Source of the DNA: Patescibacteria group bacterium
GTDB lineage: Bacteria; Patescibacteriota; Minisyncoccia; Phycocordibacterales; EsbW-18
Assembly (NCBI GenBank): GCA_038064475.1
Contig: JBBTTA010000001.1
Coordinates: 111,086-175,085 of the forward strand
Reading direction: 5' to 3'
Length of the DNA: 64,000 nucleotides
Shown: piece after piece, positions 458-50,245 of the stretch
How positions within the stretch are numbered: the first letter of the stretch is position 1
Layout of the letters: each line of letters begins with the position of its first letter
Notes under the pieces: generated by a model
What the model was told of the DNA's origin: nothing
Database searches by the model: none
The model's input: the letters and a program-made list of their open reading frames with translations, nothing else
Program-made: the position numbers and the translations under genes

Positions 458-976
458 ATGGTTGATATCGTACAAAAAGAAAATCACACACTTCGGGGTA
501 AGGCCGGACCTGTTGCACAGGCTGATTTTGGAAGTGAAAAACTTCATGAAATCATTGCGCGCATGTCTGATGCACTCTCTGGAGAAAATGACGGTGTTGC
601 GATTGCCGCACCCCAAATTGGCATTCCTCTCCGTATTTTTGTTATATCAGGGAAAGTACTTCGCAAAAAAAGAGACGGCTCACTAGCATCGGACCGTGTT
701 TTCATTAATCCAGAAATCGTAAACACTGCGCAGAAAAAAGAATGGATGGAAGAAGGATGTCTTTCTGTCCGCTGGCAATATGGTGAGGTCGAGCGTTTTA
801 TAAAAGCTACGGTGCGCGCACACGACGTGAACGGCAAAGCATTCACACTCGGCGGCGGCCGTCTCCTCTCACATATTTTTCAACACGAAATTGATCATCT
901 CAACGGCATTTTGTTTATCGACAAAGCACGCAACGTAAAAGAAATGCATCCTAACAAACCTCATTATGGATATTAA
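458..976 (+). CDS. def: peptide deformylase
   Basis: 172 aa carrying the GVAIAAPQIG, EGCLS and HEIDHLNG deformylase motifs. It sits immediately upstream of fmt and overlaps it. Confidence 0.9.
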   Translation: MVDIVQKENHTLRGKAGPVAQADFGSEKLHEIIARMSDALSGENDGVAIAAPQIGIPLRIFVISGKVLRKKRDGSLASDRVFINPEIVNTAQKKEWMEEGCLSVRWQYGEVERFIKATVRAHDVNGKAFTLGGGRLLSHIFQHEIDHLNGILFIDKARNVKEMHPNKPHYGY

Positions 977-3059: not shown

Positions 3060-3959
3060 CTATCGGTCAAAAATACTTACAAGATACGTATCAATATCCC
3101 GCTGGTCCATGTCATAGAAGTACTCTTTTTCACGATGGAGGTCTTTTGCGAGATCGAGACCGACAAAACGCCAATGCCATGGTTCGAATTGGTAGTAGGT
3201 ATTGTTTTCAGGATACGAAAGAACAAATCCGTATTTGTATGCGTTTGCGAGAAGCCACGTATATGCTGGTGTAACATTGAATCCATCAAGCGCGCCGTTT
3301 GTTGCGACCGTTGAAAAATCCACCGTCGTGCCGAGTTGATGTTCTGAATATCCTTGATCTGCAGAAAATTGATTCGCCGTACCCGCACCATAGACGACAC
3401 TGTAGCTCGATTTGAGTGTTGTCTGTTCTCCAAATGAACGGAATGCGGAAATGATGCGAAGATCCACGTTATCGTTATCTGCTTCTTCCATGAGGTCTTC
3501 CAAAAAAGGCCATACTTTTGAGTGAATGTTTTCTGCCTCAACTTCTGGATATCTATATTGTTTTTCTATTTCTTTGAACGATGGCGGTGAGTAGTGTTCA
3601 TTCAAAAAGTACACTTTGGAGTATTTCTGCAATAGTTCAGGATCAGTTTTACTCAATTTTTCGAGCATACCAACCGTGTCAGCAATATCATCAATTTGGT
3701 CCTCCAAATCCTCGTTCTTTTTTTGTTCAGAGTAAAGAGCCTCAGACAATGTTTTATTTTCCAACTCTTTTTCTCCAAGTTTTGTTGAGAGATCCCCTAC
3801 CTCTGTCGTATATTTTTCATTCGCTGTGGCAAGTTTTGTCTGTGCTCTCCACCAGCCCAATGCAAGTCCCGCGCACAACACAAAGCCAATAAGAGCGTAT
3901 ATGTAGACTGACTGGGCTTTCTCTCTGGTATCGCTGTGATGCTCTGTATGTGTATTCAT
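3060..3959 (-). CDS. D-alanyl-D-alanine carboxypeptidase (VanY / peptidase M15B family), membrane-anchored with a coiled-coil region
   Basis: The C-terminus has YSEHQLGTTVDF and WHWRFVG, which are M15 motifs. The ORF track extends to 4040, but the ATG at 3959 (MNTHTEHH...) avoids overlapping the divergent GH18 start. Confidence 0.75.
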   Translation of the reverse strand: MNTHTEHHSDTREKAQSVYIYALIGFVLCAGLALGWWRAQTKLATANEKYTTEVGDLSTKLGEKELENKTLSEALYSEQKKNEDLEDQIDDIADTVGMLEKLSKTDPELLQKYSKVYFLNEHYSPPSFKEIEKQYRYPEVEAENIHSKVWPFLEDLMEEADNDNVDLRIISAFRSFGEQTTLKSSYSVVYGAGTANQFSADQGYSEHQLGTTVDFSTVATNGALDGFNVTPAYTWLLANAYKYGFVLSYPENNTYYQFEPWHWRFVGLDLAKDLHREKEYFYDMDQRDIDTYLVSIFDR

Positions 3960-8953: not shown

Positions 8954-9121
8954 AGTTTTATATTGTTGCGGGACACTGGATTTTTGAATCCTCTCTTTGT
9001 ATTGACCGGTAAAGTGAGCATATCACAGGTATATGACTCGCGCAGTGCGACGGCACGAGCGGGAGTGCCGTTCTAGCAAGAACGGACACGTGTCATATGC
9101 CGGTGAGTATGCGAACGAATG

Positions 9122-9192
9122 TTGCGGGACTTGGATTCGAACCAAGATACCCTCCTCCAAAGGGAGGTGTCCTACCATTAGACGATCCCGCA
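9122..9192 (-). tRNA. tRNA-Gln (anticodon TTG)
   Basis: On the minus strand a cloverleaf can be drawn: acceptor TGCGGGA/TCCCGCA, anticodon stem CCTCC/GGAGG with loop CTTTGGA, and T-arm CTTGG-TTCGAAT-CCAAG. Confidence 0.85.
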
Positions 9193-20885: not shown

Positions 20886-21839
20886 TTAGACGCTGAAGTT
20901 GTTGATTGAGTATAGATCGTCGTCCGAGGGATCTTTCTTTGGGGTAGGTGGCTCACCTTCAGTTCCCTCTTGTGGCACTGTTGTATCTCTGGGTGCTTTT
21001 GTCGGAGCATTCTCCCCTTCTCCATTCAAAATACGGAGTACCTTACGCACGTCGTCTTCTGACATAACGTCAATTAAAATACGCCCACCGACAGCGCCCG
21101 GTTCAACGCGAACACGCGTGCCAAGTGTTTCTGATGCGCGCTCTTCAAGCTCCACAATATCTGGATCGTACATACGCTCTCGTTTGCGCACTTTATCAAA
21201 TGCAATACGACGAGAAATTTGTTCTGCGTCACGCACGTTAATTTTCTTCGCAATAATTTCTTTGAAAAGGGTACGTTGTTCTTCAGGACGATCAACAAGC
21301 ATAAGGAGTGGTCGTGTGTGACCTTCCGTAATCTGTCCTTCAGCGAGCGCTTGTTGCATCGCTTCGGGAAGCATGAGAATACGAAGTGTGTTTGAAACAT
21401 ATTCACGACTGCGGCCGATTTTCTTTGCGATATCCGTGTGTGAAAGACCAAATTGTCCTGCAAGTTGTTTAAATGCCTGCGCGCGTTCAACGGCATTGAT
21501 ATCTTCACGTTGAAGGTTCTCGATGATAGCAATCTCAAGTTTTACCTGTTCATTTTCTTGATCATCACGAATAATGACAGGGACTTGTGTTAGCCCAGCT
21601 ATTTTTGCCGCGCGTAAACGGCGTTCTCCGGCGATGAGCTCATATTCCATGCCCATACCACCGTTATCTCGAGAAACCTCACGCTGTGTCACCACAAGCG
21701 GTTGCAAGACACCATATTGACGAATTGAGTTCGCAAGATCCTTAAGACGCCCCTCATCAAAGTCGCGCCGTGGTTGATATGGATTCGGCACGATGCGATC
21801 CACTTCGACCCAAAAAATAGAATTACTCTGGTATGCCAT
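20886..21839 (-). CDS. parB: chromosome partitioning protein ParB/Spo0J
   Basis: It has the ParB box GERRLRAAK and the HTH GLSHTDIAKKIGRSREYVSNTLR. The start is set at MAYQSN. Confidence 0.85.
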   Translation of the reverse strand: MAYQSNSIFWVEVDRIVPNPYQPRRDFDEGRLKDLANSIRQYGVLQPLVVTQREVSRDNGGMGMEYELIAGERRLRAAKIAGLTQVPVIIRDDQENEQVKLEIAIIENLQREDINAVERAQAFKQLAGQFGLSHTDIAKKIGRSREYVSNTLRILMLPEAMQQALAEGQITEGHTRPLLMLVDRPEEQRTLFKEIIAKKINVRDAEQISRRIAFDKVRKRERMYDPDIVELEERASETLGTRVRVEPGAVGGRILIDVMSEDDVRKVLRILNGEGENAPTKAPRDTTVPQEGTEGEPPTPKKDPSDDDLYSINNFSV

Positions 21840-21935
21840 GTGTTCAGTGTAGCAAAATGAAACGCTCACGTCAGTGTGGAGATTCTGGGGATGTCTTATC
21901 GTACGAGCAGTTTTCTGCTAGAATCAATCCGAAAT

Positions 21936-22016
21936 GCCGGAGTGGCGGAATGGTATACGCGCACGACTCAAAATCGTGTCTCGAAAGGGATGAGGGTTCG
22001 AGTCCCTCCTCCGGCA
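21936..22016 (+). tRNA. tRNA-Leu (anticodon CAA), class II with a long variable arm
   Basis: A cloverleaf can be drawn: acceptor GCCGGAG/CTCCGGC, anticodon loop CTCAAAA, variable arm TCTCGAAAGGGAT and T-arm GAGGG-TTCGAGT-CCCTC. Confidence 0.9.
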
Positions 22017-22027
22017 CAAAGACAGTT

Positions 22028-22063
22028 GAGGCGGACGCATAGCGTCCGCCGATTACTGATTTT
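22028..22063 (+). terminator. terminator after tRNA-Leu(CAA)
   Basis: The hairpin gcggacgc-ata-gcgtccgc is followed by gattactgatttt. Confidence 0.6.
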
Positions 22064-22064
22064 C

Positions 22065-22187
22065 GCCGGAGGAGGGACTCGAAGGCGAATGCGGGCACCT
22101 TGTCAGCAGACAAGGTCGCATGAGCAGGGCCGAGCGGAGTAAGGAGCGACGGCGACGAACGAGCGCTTGGCCGAGTCCCGACGACTC
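22065..22187. repeat. tRNA-Leu 3'-flank structured element, copy 1 of 3
   Basis: It starts with gccggaggagggactcgaa, the exact reverse complement of this tRNA's T-arm and acceptor 3' half. A conserved GC-rich core follows (cgaatgcgggcaccttgtcagcagacaaggtcgcatgagcagg...gagcgacggcgacgaa). It ends with cgagtccc, which pairs with gggactcg in the first segment. Confidence 0.5.
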
Positions 22188-22201
22188 TTACCTACACCTT
22201 T

Positions 22202-23095
22202 ATGAAACCAAAAATCCTCGTCATCCTAGGGCCTACAGCTACGGGCAAAAGTGATATTGCGGTCCACCTTGCGAAAAAATTCGATGGGGAAGTCGTGTCC
22301 GCTGATTCACGGCAGGTATATCGCGGACTTGATATTGGCAGTGGAAAAATAACAAAGCATGAGATGAAGGGCGTTACGCATCACATGCTTAATGTAGTGA
22401 GCCCAAAAAATACATACACTGCAGCTCGTTTTGCATATGACGCGAATCGTATAGTAGAAAAAATCCTTTCAAAGAAAAAGTTGCCGATTATTGTTGGCGG
22501 CACAGGCATGTATATTGATGCACTTGTTGATGGTGTTATGTTTCCAGAAGTTCCTCCCAATCCCCTCCTTCGTAAAAAATTTGAAAAGAAATCCACCGAA
22601 GACCTTTTCCGTCTTCTTAAGAAAAAAGATTCTGTCCGTGCCAAAACAATAGACAAACATAATCGTCGTCGACTTATTCGCGCACTTGAAATTGTTGCTC
22701 TACTCGGAAAAGTCCCCTCTCAAAAAAAGAAAAGTATTTTTACACCACTCCATATTGGATTATTACTTTCTGATAAGGAACTCCGCGCAAGAATCCACAC
22801 TCGCCTACTCGCCCGAATGAAAAAAGGAATGGCAAGGGAAGTCGCACACCTCAAAAAAAGTGGTGTCTCGTGGAAACGTTTCGCAGAACTCGGACTTGAG
22901 TATCGCTATGTCGCACTGTATCTCCAGAAAAAGATTTCAAAACAGGGGATGTTGGTGAAGCTTGAAACAGAAATCTGGCGCTATGCGAAACGACAAATGA
23001 CGTGGTTTACACCAAATAAAAAAATCAATTGGTTCCGTCCGACGAAAGATGCGCGAAACATTGAAAAAAAAGTGAAACAGTTCCTCACCACATAA
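22202..23095 (+). CDS. miaA: tRNA dimethylallyltransferase
   Basis: The P-loop is GPTATGKS and the SADSRQVYRGLDIGSGK motif is present. Confidence 0.9.
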   Translation: MKPKILVILGPTATGKSDIAVHLAKKFDGEVVSADSRQVYRGLDIGSGKITKHEMKGVTHHMLNVVSPKNTYTAARFAYDANRIVEKILSKKKLPIIVGGTGMYIDALVDGVMFPEVPPNPLLRKKFEKKSTEDLFRLLKKKDSVRAKTIDKHNRRRLIRALEIVALLGKVPSQKKKSIFTPLHIGLLLSDKELRARIHTRLLARMKKGMAREVAHLKKSGVSWKRFAELGLEYRYVALYLQKKISKQGMLVKLETEIWRYAKRQMTWFTPNKKINWFRPTKDARNIEKKVKQFLTT

Positions 23096-44670: not shown

Positions 44671-44753
44671 GCTGGGGTGGCGAAATGGTATACGCGACAG
44701 ACTTAAGATCTGTTGTCCGCAAGGACGTGAGGGTTCGATCCCCTCTCCCAGCA
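44671..44753 (+). tRNA. tRNA-Leu (anticodon TAA), class II
   Basis: Acceptor GCTGGGG/TCCCAGC (with one G-U pair), anticodon loop CTTAAGA, long variable arm and T-arm GAGGG-TTCGATC-CCCTC. Confidence 0.9.
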
Positions 44754-44766
44754 CTAAAATTGTTGA

Positions 44767-44799
44767 GACGAACACATGTGTTCGTCGATTACTATTTTT
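44767..44799 (+). terminator. terminator after tRNA-Leu(TAA)
   Basis: The palindrome gacgaacacatgtgttcgtc is followed by gattactattttt. Confidence 0.6.
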
Positions 44800-44919
44800 G
44801 CTGGGAGAGGGGATCGAAGGCGAGTGCGGGCGCCTTGTCAGCAGACAAGGTCGCATGAGCAGGACTGAGAGGAATGAGGAGCGACGGCGACGAATGAGCT
44901 CTTGGTCTGAGCCCCTCTC
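44800..44919. repeat. tRNA-Leu 3'-flank structured element, copy 2 of 3
   Basis: It starts with gctgggagaggggatcgaa, the exact reverse complement of this tRNA's 3' half. The core is about 90% identical to copy 1. It ends with cccctctc, which pairs with gagagggg in the first segment. Confidence 0.5.
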
Positions 44920-44968
44920 TTAAAATATAAATTGCGAATAGAGCGTTATTTTAGTAGGATACAAACAC

Positions 44969-45040
44969 CCATCCGTAGCTCAATGGTAGAGCAGCTCCCT
45001 CTTAAGGAGTTGGTTGTAGGTTCGACTCCTACCGGGTGGA
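44969..45040 (+). tRNA. tRNA-Lys (anticodon CTT)
   Basis: Acceptor CCATCCG/CGGGTGG, D-arm GCTC-AATGGTA-GAGC, anticodon loop CTCTTAA and T-arm GTAGG-TTCGACT-CCTAC. Confidence 0.85.
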
Positions 45041-45130
45041 CTTTCAAAGAAAGTCCTGCATATTAGAGTGTGCGGAGCACATTCTACTCCGGCAAGCTTT
45101 GCCTGATTCGCGTTCTGACGCGACAAAGCT

Positions 45131-45224
45131 TACCGGGTGGACAAGTGAGCCGGTATCGATGAGCTTGCTTATCGGAAACGGCGAGCGCGGACACTCGGTA
45201 TCCTATACCGGGTGGACAAGTGAG
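45131..45224 (+). repeat. two 19-nt direct repeats (taccgggtggacaagtgag) that copy the 3' end of tRNA-Lys; they resemble att-site remnants
   Basis: The 12-nt core taccgggtggac is present at the tRNA 3' end (45030..45041) and again at 45131..45149 and 45206..45224. Confidence 0.5.
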
Positions 45225-45246
45225 TTTTAGTCGCCTGCTCACGTTC

Positions 45247-45328
45247 GGGCGAGTGGCGAAATTGGTAGACGCGCCAGCCTTAGGAGCTGGTGGAGCAATC
45301 CTTGGAGGTTCGAGTCCTCTCTCGCCCA
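45247..45328 (+). tRNA. tRNA-Leu (anticodon TAG), class II
   Basis: Acceptor GGGCGAG/CTCGCCC, anticodon loop CTTAGGA, long variable arm and T-arm GGAGG-TTCGAGT-CCTCT. Confidence 0.9.
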
Positions 45329-45335
45329 CACATAC

Positions 45336-45368
45336 AAAAACAACGCCAGTTTATTGGCGTTGTTTTTG
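45336..45368 (+). terminator. terminator after tRNA-Leu(TAG)
   Basis: The hairpin aaaaacaacgcc-agtttatt-ggcgttgttttt is present. Confidence 0.6.
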
Positions 45369-45384
45369 TATGTGCTGACGAAAA

Positions 45385-45495
45385 CGAGAGAGGACTCGAA
45401 GGACGGAGCGGTGTTGCAGAAGCTTCTGCAACCGCGAGTCCGTGCCTAGCCCGAACCGAGCGACGGCGAGGTGAGAGGCGAAGGAGAGTCCTCTT
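45385..45495. repeat. tRNA-Leu 3'-flank structured element, copy 3 of 3 (the divergent member)
   Basis: It starts with cgagagaggactcgaa, the reverse complement of this tRNA's 3' half. It shares gagcgacggcga with the other copies. Its internal hairpin gttgcagaagcttctgcaac replaces the ccttgtcagcagacaagg hairpin of copies 1 and 2. It ends with gagtcctct, which pairs with agaggactc. Confidence 0.45.
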
Positions 45496-45656
45496 CCCTT
45501 TCAAGCCCCTGTTAAGCCTTTATTTTTGGCCATATAGCTTGACTTTTTGGGTGAAAGTGCTATAATCGTCGGCAGAGTTGGGAACGTGTGTTCCCTAAAG
45601 TTCTTCGTCAACCTAGAGTCAAAACAAACTTCCCTATTGGGAAAGGAGATACAAAA

Positions 45657-46757
45657 ATGCTCATCTGGTTCGCAATCGTAGTGCTTTTCGTAATCCTCGT
45701 CATCCTTGCCGGAAAACTCGGCTGGTTCATGACCGAGGTTCCCGAGGGCTCTATGAAGTTCGTAAAAGCTGGTGAGGATTACGTCCGTACAATCCTCAAC
45801 ATCAAGAACAAGACGATGGTCAGGAAGTTTGATCCAGCAACTGGAGTCGAAGAAGAAGTCATCGAAACTGGATTCAATCCACTGTCTTTGTCTCCTCTTC
45901 GTGTATTCGGTTTTCACTGGATCAGTTGGATGTGGCCTCTTCGGCGTCTGCATCGGTTTTCTTTGACTACGAACATTCTCATTACGGAAACCGAACAGGG
46001 TCAAAAGAAACTCCACGAGTGGGTGCAGACCAAGCCACACGACAACACCGACCGACTTGGTCTCATGATCCGATCATACTTCTTTTTGAAGGGGGTCGAG
46101 CTCAAGGGGCAGTTCAAGGTAGACGTCGTTGTGTTCGCTCTCATGGAGATCGTCAACCCGCGTCTTGCAGTCTTCGTGTACAATGCTGACTTCGTCAAGA
46201 TCTTGGGACCAGCAATCCTTTCTGGATATGCTGACAATGCCAAGACCAAAGACATCGTCCAGTTCACGAACCTGAAGAAAGGACGTGGGAGTAAGTTCGC
46301 ACAAGATGTTTGTGAGTATGTAAATACAGGCCGCAGAAGTAAGGTCGCAACCGAGAAAATCGAAAACGTATACGGCGTTCGACTTGTCGAGACGTTTGTA
46401 TACGAGTTCGACCAAGCAGATGCTGATCCCGAGGCTCTCAAGGCCGCACAGGCTCAGAAAGTTGCCGAGCTCCAAGCAAAGGCAACTATCACAAGAGCAA
46501 CGGGTCAAGCTGAAGCTCGAGTGATCGAAGCCAATGCAAAAGCCACCGAGCTCTCGTCGAACGTCAAAGCACTCGTCGAGGTTGGGGTTGATCCCAACGA
46601 AGCGATGCGTAGTTACGCGACCATCCGTTCGACAGAGAATGTTCCAAACCTTCAGACGTGGGTGCAAGGTGGCGGTGTGGTTCCGACAGTTTCTGTTGGC
46701 AATCCCACTTCCCCTTCCCCTTCGTCCAAGAACAAACCCAAGGAGACTCCCTCATGA
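45657..46757 (+). CDS. SPFH / band-7 (stomatin/HflK-like) domain membrane protein
   Basis: It has an N-terminal TM helix, a band-7 core and a coiled-coil, AQAQKVAELQAKATITRATGQAEARVIEANAKA. AAGGAG sits 8 nt upstream of the ATG. The region's GC is visibly elevated. Confidence 0.75.
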   Translation: MLIWFAIVVLFVILVILAGKLGWFMTEVPEGSMKFVKAGEDYVRTILNIKNKTMVRKFDPATGVEEEVIETGFNPLSLSPLRVFGFHWISWMWPLRRLHRFSLTTNILITETEQGQKKLHEWVQTKPHDNTDRLGLMIRSYFFLKGVELKGQFKVDVVVFALMEIVNPRLAVFVYNADFVKILGPAILSGYADNAKTKDIVQFTNLKKGRGSKFAQDVCEYVNTGRRSKVATEKIENVYGVRLVETFVYEFDQADADPEALKAAQAQKVAELQAKATITRATGQAEARVIEANAKATELSSNVKALVEVGVDPNEAMRSYATIRSTENVPNLQTWVQGGGVVPTVSVGNPTSPSPSSKNKPKETPS

Positions 46758-47968: not shown

Positions 47969-48277
47969 TTAGATTCCGCCTTCAACTTGCGGCTCTATCT
48001 GTTCGTTTATTGAAGGTAGAGGCTCGTTACTTCCTATAGTCCCATGAATGATACGGATGATGCCAAACACTGACACCATGATGACCATGCCAATGATTCC
48101 ATAAAGCATATTCCTCTTCCCTGTTGCACGCTCACCTTCGTCATCAACATTCTTTATGAACTGGAATATTCCGTAAATGAAGAGGAGAAATGCAACAGCA
48201 AAAAGCAACATGATGACCGGACGCACGATGACATCATACAGTCGCGTCAAAAGTCCATTAACGGTCATTGGCTCCAT
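47969..48277 (-). CDS. small two-helix membrane protein, pilin-like paralog 1 (TrbC/VirB2-like architecture)
   Basis: 102 aa. The core LLFIYGIFQFIKNVDDEGERATGKRNMLYGIIGMVIMVSVFGIIRII is shared with the five upstream ORFs. Confidence 0.55.
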   Translation of the reverse strand: MEPMTVNGLLTRLYDVIVRPVIMLLFAVAFLLFIYGIFQFIKNVDDEGERATGKRNMLYGIIGMVIMVSVFGIIRIIHGTIGSNEPLPSINEQIEPQVEGGI

Positions 48278-48291
48278 GAACTGAAATATAG

Positions 48292-48642
48292 TTAGTTTCC
48301 TTCAACACCAGGAACTGGTAGTGACCCACCTTGATCAACACCAACCGCGTCACCAATCCATCGGATGATACCAACGATAGAAACGATAACGAAGAGTGCA
48401 ATGATACCTCCGATCATGAGGTTTTTACCTTGTTCTTTTGCTTCGTCACTACCTGAAGCGAAGATAAACTTCACCAAACCCCAGAAGAAAACAAGGAGAG
48501 CGATACCGACAACGATAGGTGTTGCAAGATCAACCAACCGGCCGATCGCTTCAACAATGTTCTCCACATTACCCAACTGTGCGTGTGCAAATGCTGGCAC
48601 AAATGCCGCAGCCGCAAGCGCGATAAGACCAATTCTTTTCAT
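48292..48642 (-). CDS. pilin-like small membrane protein, paralog 2
   Basis: 116 aa with a signal peptide ending AFAHA, then a hydrophobic helix, the loop GSDEAKEQGKN and a second helix IGGIIALFVIVSIVGIIRWI. Confidence 0.55.
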   Translation of the reverse strand: MKRIGLIALAAAAFVPAFAHAQLGNVENIVEAIGRLVDLATPIVVGIALLVFFWGLVKFIFASGSDEAKEQGKNLMIGGIIALFVIVSIVGIIRWIGDAVGVDQGGSLPVPGVEGN

Positions 48643-48749
48643 ACGTGTAAATATCTAGTTTTTAAACCTATAGGCCTTCGAAAGAAAGCTATGTATCCAT
48701 TATACCCTGCCCTGTGTGTGAGCAAGGACGCTATACACAGATGGGGAAA

Positions 48750-49118
48750 CTATGGTGTTGGAGGTGGTATTACTATTGGTGGAAGAATTGGAGGTGTTCC
48801 CGGTGTTATACCAACCTCTATTCCAATCCAGCGTATAATTCCGAAAATTGCAAAAAGTACAAAGAGTGCAATCGCACCTTGTACCATAAGTCGACGCCCT
48901 CCTTCTTTCGCACCTTCGTCTTCCGCATTCGCAATGTATTTTACAAGACCCCAAATAAAAACAAGAAGTGCAAGTGAAGCTGCAATGATTGTCAGTGTAG
49001 TGATAACTTGTCGAAAACTGGTTAAAAGGAGCTTTGTATTTGAAAGATTACCTCCTCCTTGCGCCAACACAAGAACCGGAAGAGCAAGAAGCCCAGATAT
49101 AAACAATAATTTTTTCAT
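48750..49118 (-). CDS. pilin-like small membrane protein, paralog 3, with a Pro-rich C-terminal tail
   Basis: 122 aa with the same core, LVFIWGLVKYIANAEDEGAKEGGRRLMVQGAIALFVLFAIFGIIRWI. Confidence 0.55.
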   Translation of the reverse strand: MKKLLFISGLLALPVLVLAQGGGNLSNTKLLLTSFRQVITTLTIIAASLALLVFIWGLVKYIANAEDEGAKEGGRRLMVQGAIALFVLFAIFGIIRWIGIEVGITPGTPPILPPIVIPPPTP

Positions 49119-49137
49119 AAAATAATATTAATTAATT

Positions 49138-49446
49138 TCAACCGAAGATATCGGTCTTGATAAACTGAACGATACCCCAGAAAGAGAAAAGAACGAACAA
49201 ACCGATAATACCGTATACCATTATTTTTCGGCCGTCATCCTTCGCTTTTCCATCCCCCGCTGATGCAATGTACTTTACGATTCCCCATACGAACGCAAGA
49301 ACTGCCAAAGCGCTCGCCAGCACAATAAGTGGGTTGATAAGGCCGATCGCGTCATTAATAAGTTCTGTAAGATTTGCAGGTGCGGCAAAGGCAAGACTTG
49401 GAACAATCAAGGAAAGAATAAAAGCTGATTTTTTCATATTATCCAA
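49138..49446 (-). CDS. pilin-like small membrane protein, paralog 4
   Basis: 102 aa reading AFVWGIVKYIASAGDGKAKDDGRKIMVYGIIGLFVLFSFWGIVQFI. Confidence 0.55.
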   Translation of the reverse strand: MDNMKKSAFILSLIVPSLAFAAPANLTELINDAIGLINPLIVLASALAVLAFVWGIVKYIASAGDGKAKDDGRKIMVYGIIGLFVLFSFWGIVQFIKTDIFG

Positions 49447-49873
49447 AATGAATTATTTCTGCTGAGTTTGTTCCTGCTCGTATCTGGTCAAGTGTTCCTT
49501 TGATGACGTTCGCAAGCACCGTCGCCCCAAGAAGTACCGCTGTGCCGATAAGTGTATACAAAAGAGTTTTCTTTGCGCTTTTCAACGCCTCCTCATTACC
49601 ACGTGCCTTCACAAACAAAAATCCGGAGTAAATGATGAAAAAAACAGCGACATAAAATCCAATCGTCGTTGCAGCTTTTGCGGCTTCGACAACAACTTCT
49701 TGAATTGAATCAAATTTAAGTGGGTTAACAATTTGAACAGGGCCCGGATTAGGTGTTCCTTGCGCAAAGGCAAAAGATACCGAAATAAATAGTCCAAAAA
49801 ATAATGCTATATAAAGTTTTTTAAAATGCGTTTCCATATCCTCCGTATCCAGACTTAACAAATGTTGTAACAA
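49439..49873 (-). CDS. pilin-like small membrane protein, paralog 5 (longer form)
   Basis: It has the same topology and loop, GFLFVKARGNEEALKSAKKTLLYTLIGTAVLLGATVLANVI. The start is uncertain; METHFKK at 49837 is possible. Confidence 0.5.
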   Translation of the reverse strand: MLQHLLSLDTEDMETHFKKLYIALFFGLFISVSFAFAQGTPNPGPVQIVNPLKFDSIQEVVVEAAKAATTIGFYVAVFFIIYSGFLFVKARGNEEALKSAKKTLLYTLIGTAVLLGATVLANVIKGTLDQIRAGTNSAEIIHFG

Positions 49874-50219
49874 TAAGATTCACGATAAGCCAAGCTGACA
49901 AAGCTATTATAAAGCCAATACCTGCATTTTTAAAGATGCTTTTTGCTTGTTCCATCCTTCCAGGATTGCCTCCCGCTGTAATAAGCAAAAACCCAGCCCA
50001 CAAGAAAAGAATTGTCACCAAGGGAATTGAGATCTTAAAGAGGAGAAAATCAATGAGACCGTCAACAAGTTGAACGAGACTCGCAAAATTACAGTCCAAA
50101 CCGTCACAGGGAACAAGACCTTCCGGCTCTGCTGCCCCAACAAGGATCGGTACCAAAAGAAGCATAAAAACGGCAACGCTTGCGTACACTCCCCATCGTT
50201 TGCCTGCCGTTTGTTTCAT
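49821..50219 (-). CDS. pilin-like small membrane protein, paralog 6 (with a Cys pair in the N-terminal region)
   Basis: 132 aa reading ILFLWAGFLLITAGGNPGRMEQAKSIFKNAGIGFIIALSAWLIVNLIV. Confidence 0.5.
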   Translation of the reverse strand: MKQTAGKRWGVYASVAVFMLLLVPILVGAAEPEGLVPCDGLDCNFASLVQLVDGLIDFLLFKISIPLVTILFLWAGFLLITAGGNPGRMEQAKSIFKNAGIGFIIALSAWLIVNLIVTTFVKSGYGGYGNAF

Positions 50220-50245
50220 ATATCTATTGTATCGCCTCCCCAGTT

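Follow-up and report, generated by a model that had tools for sequence, protein, structure and literature searches.

Integrase-borne islands and prophages target the 3′ part of tRNA and tmRNA genes, supply a replacement 3′ end that leaves the gene intact, and carry a direct repeat of the tRNA 3′ end at their far border (attL/attR). Successive insertions give rise to tandem arrays in which the newest element lies next to the tRNA. The attP of mycobacteriophage Ms6 lies in the T-loop of tRNA-Ala (PMC1762012), Dehalococcoides has ssrA islands with tandem repeats (PMC3146451), and tRNA gene fragments result from integration into tRNA 3′ ends according to a passage of PMC9897764 that cites Williams 2002. 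Here we analyse a short unit behind tRNA-Leu(CAA) in a 64-kb stretch of a Patescibacteria genome, part of a 324-kb contig from the 0.1 µm fraction of a Hainich groundwater metagenome. This stretch is called the window and its numbering is used throughout; labels such as L090 denote comparison loci. Read 5′ to 3′ on the tRNA strand, the unit consists of the T-loop-to-acceptor 3′ segment of the tRNA (A1), an A-rich trailer, a hairpin (hp0), a U-rich anti-trailer, an antisense copy of A1 (A′), an optional hairpin (Px), a core composed of GG and the hairpins P2 and P3, and a direct copy of the tRNA 3′ segment (A2). The unit resembles integrase-borne islands in its target, its replacement 3′ end, its far-border repeat and its arrays. 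Unlike them, it spans 170-200 bp instead of kilobases, carries neither an integrase nor any other open reading frame (ORF), possesses an inverted copy of the att segment together with a conserved, covarying three-way-junction core, and stands behind many different tRNAs with arms matched to each. We class the unit as a variant of the tRNA-targeting integrative kind and not as a member of that family, as the defining integrase is absent: no ORF fits into a unit of this size, and no recombinase domain was found among the annotated neighbours.

Folded single-strand recombination sites provide a second comparison. The hairpin attP of the (+) single-stranded DNA of CTX phage, which is used by Xer recombinases, and the attC sites of integrons are of this type. 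Like them, the unit has a strand-specific structure and an imperfect palindrome at the cassette border (A-hairpin-A′) that could rebuild a duplex site from one strand, the single-stranded form being hypothetical; its arrays recall those of integron cassettes. Unlike them, it lacks R/L boxes, the GTTRRRY core and a dif-like site, has no linked IntI or Xer gene, and targets the tRNA T-loop. Its junctions (TCGAAGG and CGAnT) are derived from the T-loop, and no integrase lies nearby.

Miniature inverted-repeat transposable elements (MITEs), REPINs, Correia and RPE elements are likewise short, non-coding, hairpin-forming and intergenic, occur in several copies per genome and are presumably mobilised in trans. 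In contrast to these repeats, the inverted arms A′ and A2 are target-derived and change with the host tRNA instead of being element-specific, there is no target-site duplication of fixed length, and the units lie strictly behind tRNA or tmRNA genes in the sense orientation, with a far more complex, RNA-like internal architecture. The mascRNA of MALAT1 and the plant tRNA-snoRNA dicistrons cleaved by RNase Z also place a structured RNA directly behind a tRNA or inside a tRNA-like helix, and by analogy RNase P and RNase Z could define the ends of a unit RNA. Those systems are eukaryotic, however, and in the unit the core replaces the T-loop, the G·U identity pairs are erased, and the acceptor-like part decays in old copies.

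We propose that the units, which occur Patescibacteria-wide, are integrative cassettes of a non-autonomous, att-like type that carry a structured RNA and depend on mobilisation in trans, and give this reading a probability of about 0.5. The units have a constant architecture and a strand-specific covarying fold, occur behind tRNAs of at least 11 specificities and behind tmRNA, form arrays, are gained and lost, and at one locus have been exchanged both as whole units and as cores.

Three copies of the unit in the window

With a covariance model (CM) built from 13 copies, the window yielded three copies and no more, whether or not filters were applied: copy 1 at 22063-22187 (125.6 bits, E 4e-34), copy 2 at 44798-44923 (113.1 bits, E 1.5e-30) and copy 3 at 45380-45500 (79.3 bits, E 8e-21). 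The next-best match had an E value of 0.08. Each copy has an antisense segment fitted to its own tRNA, over 19, 20 and 16 nt, respectively. Copies 1 and 2 are 79% identical, and copy 3, which belongs to a different subfamily, shows 43-46% identity. Folding energies of the plus strand are -61.1, -59.1 and -56.1 kcal/mol for copies 1 to 3 (z-scores -4.2, -5.0 and -4.5), and the plus strand folds better than the minus strand in all three. The similarity and common layout of the three copies are far beyond chance. The preliminary description had recognised copy 1 as a third copy with the layout of those at 44.7-45.5 kb, and had concluded that the element is not a local duplication inside the tRNA cluster; both points are borne out, as is its terminal stem between gggactcg (22074-22081) and cgagtccc (22172-22179). 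The features are listed in Table 1.

Table 1. Coordinates of the tRNA-Leu(CAA) unit (copy 1) and of the two further units in the window
Feature	Position	Strand	Description
Host gene tRNA-Leu(CAA)	21936..22017	+	ARAGORN; Rfam RF00005, 62.1 bits; A1/A′ match
A1	21997-22015	+	T-loop-to-acceptor 3′ segment of tRNA-Leu(CAA); copied by the element in both orientations
Trailer, hp0 and U-rich anti-trailer	22017..22064	+	Plan conserved across copies
A′ arm	22065..22083	+	Perfect 19-nt Watson-Crick antisense of tRNA positions 54-72 (21997-22015), i.e. T-loop, T-stem 3′ strand and acceptor 3′ strand
Junction GG and P2	22084..22125	+	Long hairpin with tandem G·A motif, 5′ bulge and C-AGCA-G loop (22105-22108); from fold and covariation
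P3	22128..22172	+	9-bp base with conserved G·U, G·A-rich internal loops, invariant tip GAGCGACGGCGA (22144-22155)
A2 (3′ arm cgagtccc)	22172..22179	+	Direct copy of tRNA positions 56-63; 3′ strand of P1
Unit 2	44755..44923	+	Behind tRNA-Leu(TAA) 44671-44754; hp0 44767-44786; A′ a perfect 20-nt antisense
Unit 3	45330..45500	+	Behind tRNA-Leu(TAG) 45247-45329; long perfect hairpin; 16-nt A′; subfamily-B core

In copy 1 the hp0 stem (22030-22038/22042-22050) closes an ATA loop and is flanked by GAG...CGA, as in other copies. It is terminator-like, though non-canonical, with CGATTACTGA intervening between the stem and the T run. The 3′ part of A′ forms the 5′ strand of the closing helix P1, the core is G-rich, and the recognisable A2 repeat is limited to 8 nt. 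Because only 22 nt separate the A2 arm from the miaA start codon (ATG) and no sigma-70-like promoter was found in 21800-22300, readthrough from the tRNA promoter into miaA is possible.

The core folds into a conserved three-way junction

The sense strand forms a three-way junction of P1, P2 and P3, in which A′ pairs with A2 as the closing helix. Across the 13 copies of the model, compensatory changes occur in 24 of the 36 predicted pairs. When 29 copies (28 distinct) were included, in an alignment that was fitted to the model, 91.8% of cells paired compared with 32-41% when the partners were slid by 1-3 columns, double-sided changes affected 32 of the 36 pairs, and none of 500 shuffles reached the observed covariation values. 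The layout of hairpin, antisense arm, core and closing stem proposed in the preliminary description is real and strongly supported by the covariation, so that the description withstands the test it had set itself, covariation across more homologs. One pair of P3 has G·U as its commonest state and several other pairs have G·U variants, so that only the sense strand can form the fold. A minus-strand tRNA-like gene was rejected on the basis of these G·U pairs and the folding energies.

Two loop motifs recur in the core. The first is a C-AGCA/AACA-G tetraloop hairpin; the second combines tandem G·A, at least two G-C pairs and a GACG or GAA loop (GAGCGACGGCGA, GGAGCGCGACGGCGCGAG, GAGCGAAGCGA). The two motifs exchange places between P2 and P3 in different core types, and every core type folds into the same three-way junction.

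The element matches no family of Rfam 15. Only tRNA and tmRNA reached the gathering threshold of Rfam 15 in the window and seven loci, and at E≤10 the element regions gave microRNA-precursor hairpin models and a few small-RNA or leader models, all far below gathering scores; T-box or other leader families, self-cleaving ribozymes, Drum and HEARO were not matched in Rfam 15. A hammerhead ribozyme was rejected: CUGANGA is missing, and the strands that link the helices at the junction are GAAGG/GAAAG, one of 2 nt and one of 0-1 nt. Group II domain V and T-box readings were discarded because their defining motifs are absent. Box C/D-like or TIGR guide RNAs were rejected as well: tandem G·A is present, but the K-turn bulge and the boxes are absent, and the 36-nt units of TIGR arrays are built differently (PMC12045711). 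Literature searches turned up no description of the element, and the family is apparently undescribed.

The P2 of the window and that of the orthologous locus L090 are 93% identical, with a compensatory change in the stem, whereas the trailer and hairpin are 56% and the downstream flank 57% identical. A purely decaying insertion would not show this contrast; judged from the sequence comparison, P2 is under purifying selection in place. This conservation in a vertically inherited copy, the covariation and the sense-strand G·U pairs would be expected of a resident functional RNA, in which the segment from A′ through the core to A2 is a non-coding readthrough RNA. Its closing helix would mimic the acceptor/T helix and be released by RNase P and RNase Z, possibly with the CCA-adding enzyme, and would then serve as a decoy or take part in the maturation or quality control of tRNA; slippage between repeated segments would account for the arrays and repeats as secondary products. 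The GC content of the core (about 0.6-0.75 versus about 0.45 for the genome) and the invariable tRNA orientation with fixed spacing are consistent with this alternative. So are the P1 of young copies, a 17-19-bp helix whose 3′ strand is the tRNA's own, and the position of Px, which divides A′ precisely at the boundary of its anti-acceptor and anti-T-stem parts, the point from which the body of a tRNA would project. A resident RNA is nevertheless unlikely, if a serious candidate, in view of the composition and turnover of the units described below.

The arms follow the adjacent tRNA

The geometry of the unit is constant: counted from the end of the tRNA, A′ lies 44-57 nt and A2 152-160 nt downstream. 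Exact arm matches measure 10-20 nt compared with a background of at most 9 nt. The A2 direct repeat begins at C56 of the T-loop and extends over 8-64 nt in different copies. The sequence after A2 is locus-specific, unlike that following A1, where a shared plan of ACAAAAATAAYGAG, stem and CGAYTATRTTTTTGT is common to different tRNAs and genomes. The junction TCGAA belongs to the target-matched arm and not to the core, because behind a tRNA-Met with the T-loop GTGCAAT the junction reads AATTGCACGG.

At every clean G·U position of the tRNA stems, A′ has the Watson-Crick complement of the 3′ strand and never the base of the 5′ strand. This rules out A′ as a copy of the tRNA 5′ strand, as in a degenerate tRNA duplicate; A′ is a templated or selected Watson-Crick complement of the tRNA 3′ strand. 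The T-loop/T-stem part of A′ is preserved at 9-10 of 10 positions in all 16 scored copies, and both its anti-acceptor part and the acceptor part of A2 have decayed in many copies. A′ is not significantly better preserved than A2 (Wilcoxon p 0.30), a comparison that served as a test for selection on A′:A1 pairing. For a resident RNA, both the tRNA-like end that is not maintained and the substitution of Watson-Crick pairs for tRNA G·U pairs, with loss of the T-loop itself, are unfavourable. A retroviral-type primer-binding site was rejected, since complementarity stops at or enters the trailer and never covers CCA.

The arms might also direct RNA-guided targeting. A′ and A2 would then serve as paired guides for both strands of the tRNA gene 3′ end, or A′ would recognise the pre-tRNA, and the hairpin loops would be grasped by a recombinase, nuclease or modification enzyme encoded elsewhere. 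In favour of this, the hairpins are constant and the arms change from target to target, complementarity to the target includes the T-loop part of the junction (as behind tRNA-Met), the two loop motifs are retained even when swapped between P2 and P3, and every hairpin has tandem G·A motifs. However, all-versus-all ORF clustering around 22 loci recovered only syntenic housekeeping genes and no linked protein family; a guide would fit the occupied site as well as the empty one; the arms decay in older copies; and complementarity that enters the trailer instead of the CCA end means that mature tRNA is not the target. We therefore regard this explanation as improbable.

A tandem inversion duplication would have the order A1/A′/A2, the complement in A′ is exact and templated, and TTCGAA and TCGA are palindromic. 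Snap-back template switching at the terminator palindrome and the palindromic T-loop (TCGA) could in principle leave such a direct-inverted-direct triplication as a functionless, neutral by-product of replication. We consider this origin very improbable, for it would leave unexplained the conserved covarying 90-nt core common to unrelated tRNAs and genomes, the selection on P2, and the fact that repeats stop where the tRNA does and not at the hairpin.

The stems of hp0 covary across copies. A rho-independent terminator scan called one of the three window hairpins. In many copies CGAYTAT lies between the hp0 stem and the U tract, and in L008, L012, L014 and L018 the U tract follows immediately. 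The tip of hp0 is often GC-GAA/GAUGA-GC with a GAG...CGA base (window 22017-22064, L008, L010, L013, L016, L018, L021, L088 and L090). As hp0 shares the tandem-G·A hairpin motif of the core, it may be more than a terminator.

Distribution across genomes and tRNA genes

A pattern composed of the invariant parts (TCGAAGG ... GAGCGACGGCGA.G...GAG) was searched in GTDB with one genome per species. It gave 14 matches, four of which were chance matches inside high-GC genomes. The 10 real copies all belong to Patescibacteria (Saccharibacteria, Paceibacteria, Kaiserbacteria, Nomurabacteria and Minisyncoccia). JGI metagenomes added about 19 genuine copies, bringing the pattern and CM searches to a total of about 30; every taxonomically labelled copy is from Patescibacteria, which have very small genomes and, to our knowledge, few recognised mobile elements or non-coding RNAs. 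In the sampled loci, an appreciable proportion of the tRNA genes have this module of about 125 nt in their 3′ flank.

The upstream gene, always on the same strand, encodes tRNA-Pro, Ser, His, Glu, Trp, Lys, Asp, Gly, Tyr, Cys or Leu, or tmRNA. These adjacent genes all score as intact, the units begin within their T-loop-to-3′-end segment, and the antisense arm matches the neighbouring tRNA in every case. The preliminary description had tied the element to tRNA-Leu genes, which does not hold, as the same core occurs behind the other tRNAs and tmRNA; since the antisense arm fits its neighbour in each case elsewhere, the three Leu genes of the window are a sampling accident. The link to miaA is incidental as well: in L090 the unit is separated from miaA by a divergent yggT-like gene, and the genes downstream of most copies elsewhere are unrelated.

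The substrates of MiaA are tRNAs for UNN codons, Leu(UUR) among them. Together with the position of all three window copies behind tRNA-Leu genes, this might suggest a tRNA-Leu-specific regulatory element that acts here as a leader for miaA. Such a role is scarcely credible, given the at least 10 other tRNA specificities and tmRNA, the broken miaA adjacency in L090, the lack of a match to T-box or other leader families, and copy 3, which follows tRNA-Leu(UAG), not a MiaA substrate class.

Units with the same A′/A2 logic and divergent cores were observed in L016 (3053-3260, Met with T-loop GTGCAAT), L012 (3100-3250, Leu-GAG), L018 (2330-2530, Ala), L046 (180-372, Ser-GCT) and L008 (6869-7100, Gly-TCC). 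The CM misses most of them, so the family is broader than the canonical core.

Units are gained, lost and exchanged

The direct repeats in L013 (17 nt), L031 (19 nt) and L016 (19 nt) end at the last base of the tRNA, as att identity blocks do. Others run into the trailer (33 nt in L009, 27 nt in L017 and 64 nt in L022), and repeats extending into a unit-like trailer suggest stacked insertions. Tandem arrays, with units separated by copies of the tRNA 3′ end, are present in L021 (two identical units), L027 (three units behind tRNA-Cys, of which the second has a different core), L018 and L088. A fragment in L013 bears the 3′ end of another tRNA. Occupancy of syntenic tRNA sets is patchy: the unit stands behind Pro in L008 and behind Gly in L017, Leu-TAG is occupied in the window and empty in L015, and Lys has a canonical unit in L015 and other small repeats in the window.

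Three relatives (L088, L090 and L092) retain the orthologous locus, relA/spoT-parB-tRNA-Leu(CAA)-[units]-miaA. Their MiaA proteins are 71-75% identical to that of the window, and the tRNA shows hardly any differences throughout. One core subtype is common to the window and L090, and the core of L092 is different. L088 and L090 have 85% identical MiaA proteins and differ in their units. In L088 an extra unit of 132 nt, with the tRNA T-loop on one side and the older unit on the other, has as its borders an 18-19-nt repeat taken from the tRNA 3′ end (CGAGTCCCTCCTCCGGCA(C)), and relative to L090 the core of its older unit has been replaced between unchanged flanks. The A′ of the extra unit is imperfect (GGAGAAGGGACGAGAAAG), so it was not copied from the target at the L088 insertion event.

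These data weigh against a resident functional RNA, which would have to tolerate patchy occupancy among orthologous tRNAs, the swapping of whole units and cores between close relatives, and direct repeats that reach into the non-functional trailer, as in L009 and L022.

A putative integrative cassette mobilised in trans

In the cassette reading, the unit would enter the T-loop region of a tRNA or tmRNA gene by site-specific recombination between its own A segment and the chromosomal A, as for integrase-borne islands, with the recombining enzyme presumably supplied in trans. Its own A1 would then complete the tRNA. The incoming unit would bring its own A-tract, hairpin and U-tract, and the displaced older tRNA 3′ end would come to lie downstream as A2. 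In the excised single strand, pairing of A with A′ may rebuild a duplex attachment site capped by the P2/P3 junction, by analogy with CTX attP and attC. The core could act as an RNA produced by readthrough from the tRNA promoter and would bind a trans-acting factor via its two conserved loops.

Several results weigh against the integrative cassette. Neither the units nor their surroundings contain a recombinase, a transposase or a reverse transcriptase, and none was found in the ~54 kb of the window that have Pfam tables. Neither an excised form nor a presence/absence polymorphism was seen in the source population, in which five other Hainich/Logan contigs spanning the tRNA cluster are all collinear with the window. 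Pattern scans of IMG/VR gave 29 matches, all by chance and none passing the CM, and a stricter pattern gave zero; BLAST searches of GenBank phages and PLSDB plasmids found no copy. The difference between L088 and L090 could equally be explained by repeat-mediated deletion. The in-place conservation of P2 fits an RNA useful to the host as well as, or better than, a selfish element. If the unit were co-transcribed, A′ would compete with tRNA folding; the predicted minimum free energy structure of tRNA plus unit sequesters the 3′ half of the tRNA. Finally, a fixed attP alone cannot explain the matching of A and A′ to more than 14 different targets.

The matched arms could instead belong to a programmable, protein-free cassette. 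Here an RNA or folded single-stranded DNA scaffold would use its target-matched arms to recognise both strands of the tRNA or tmRNA 3′ end and recruit an unlinked host enzyme to insert, exchange or protect itself. Patescibacteria alone would then possess a system in which base pairing directs recombination or the targeting of tRNA and proteins take hold of the P2/P3 loops, a conjecture that we hold to be doubtful.

If the units are indeed mini-integrative cassettes mobilised in trans, they would be the smallest element known to use the attachment logic of tRNA 3′ ends, and would point to a further recombinase and a folded-strand att site. If they are resident RNAs, they would constitute a new, widespread RNA class of the candidate phyla radiation that is linked to tRNA expression. 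A practical consequence of the repeats is that assemblies break at tRNA clusters and chimeric contigs arise.

Neighbouring genes and additional observations

In the first 202 nt of L004 (positions 1-202, Logan contig of ERR3858137), the 5′ half of copy 2, with the A′ of tRNA-Leu(TAA), runs on into the 3′ half of copy 1 followed by miaA. The two are joined inside a stretch of ~30 nt that is identical in copies 1 and 2, and the sequence is most likely a repeat-caused assembly chimera, for which reason a real hybrid of the two copies was rejected. Several other contigs terminate within the tRNA cluster.

A marginal P2-like match at 9057-9093 (+; 13.3 bits, E 0.08) is antisense to the 3′ flank of tRNA-Gln (9121-9192, minus strand) and is probably due to chance. 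Within the cluster, the 3′ end of tRNA-Lys(CTT) (44969-45041) plus 7 nt (taccgggtggacaagtgag) is directly recopied twice more within 45042-45246. Each copy is preceded by a small hairpin segment opening with a short antisense (ccgg...). The CM does not recognise these repeats (best E 8.5), which may be a different or degenerate type of unit. In L027, an orphan subfamily-B unit at 563-685 (+) has a tRNA-Leu-like 3′ arm and no tRNA gene upstream, and is followed by a tRNA-Leu-like 3′ fragment, gattcaagtgctctcctgcccgc; it looks like the remnant of a lost or rearranged tRNA locus.

The tRNA-Leu(CAA) unit neighbours housekeeping genes, with relA/spoT and parB upstream and miaA downstream; the best matches of the window MiaA are Campbellbacteria/Parcubacteria proteins. 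Housekeeping genes also precede the tRNA cluster (44.5-45.5 kb), namely those for IF-2 and RbfA. Copy 3 is followed by a near-consensus sigma-70 promoter at 45539-45566 (TTGACT, 16-nt spacer, TG-TATAAT), upstream of a gene (45588-46757) for a 389-aa protein without a Pfam domain. Further downstream lie type IV secretion pilin-like genes: at about 47969-50220, five small genes with T4SS_pilin/TrbC-like domains are located beside a solute-binding protein gene.

In the relatives, a tRNA-Ser(GGA) gene directly follows miaA (L088 3418-3505, L090 3431-3516 and, together with a unit of its own at 3552-3650, L092 3428-3650). No tRNA gene follows the miaA of the window.

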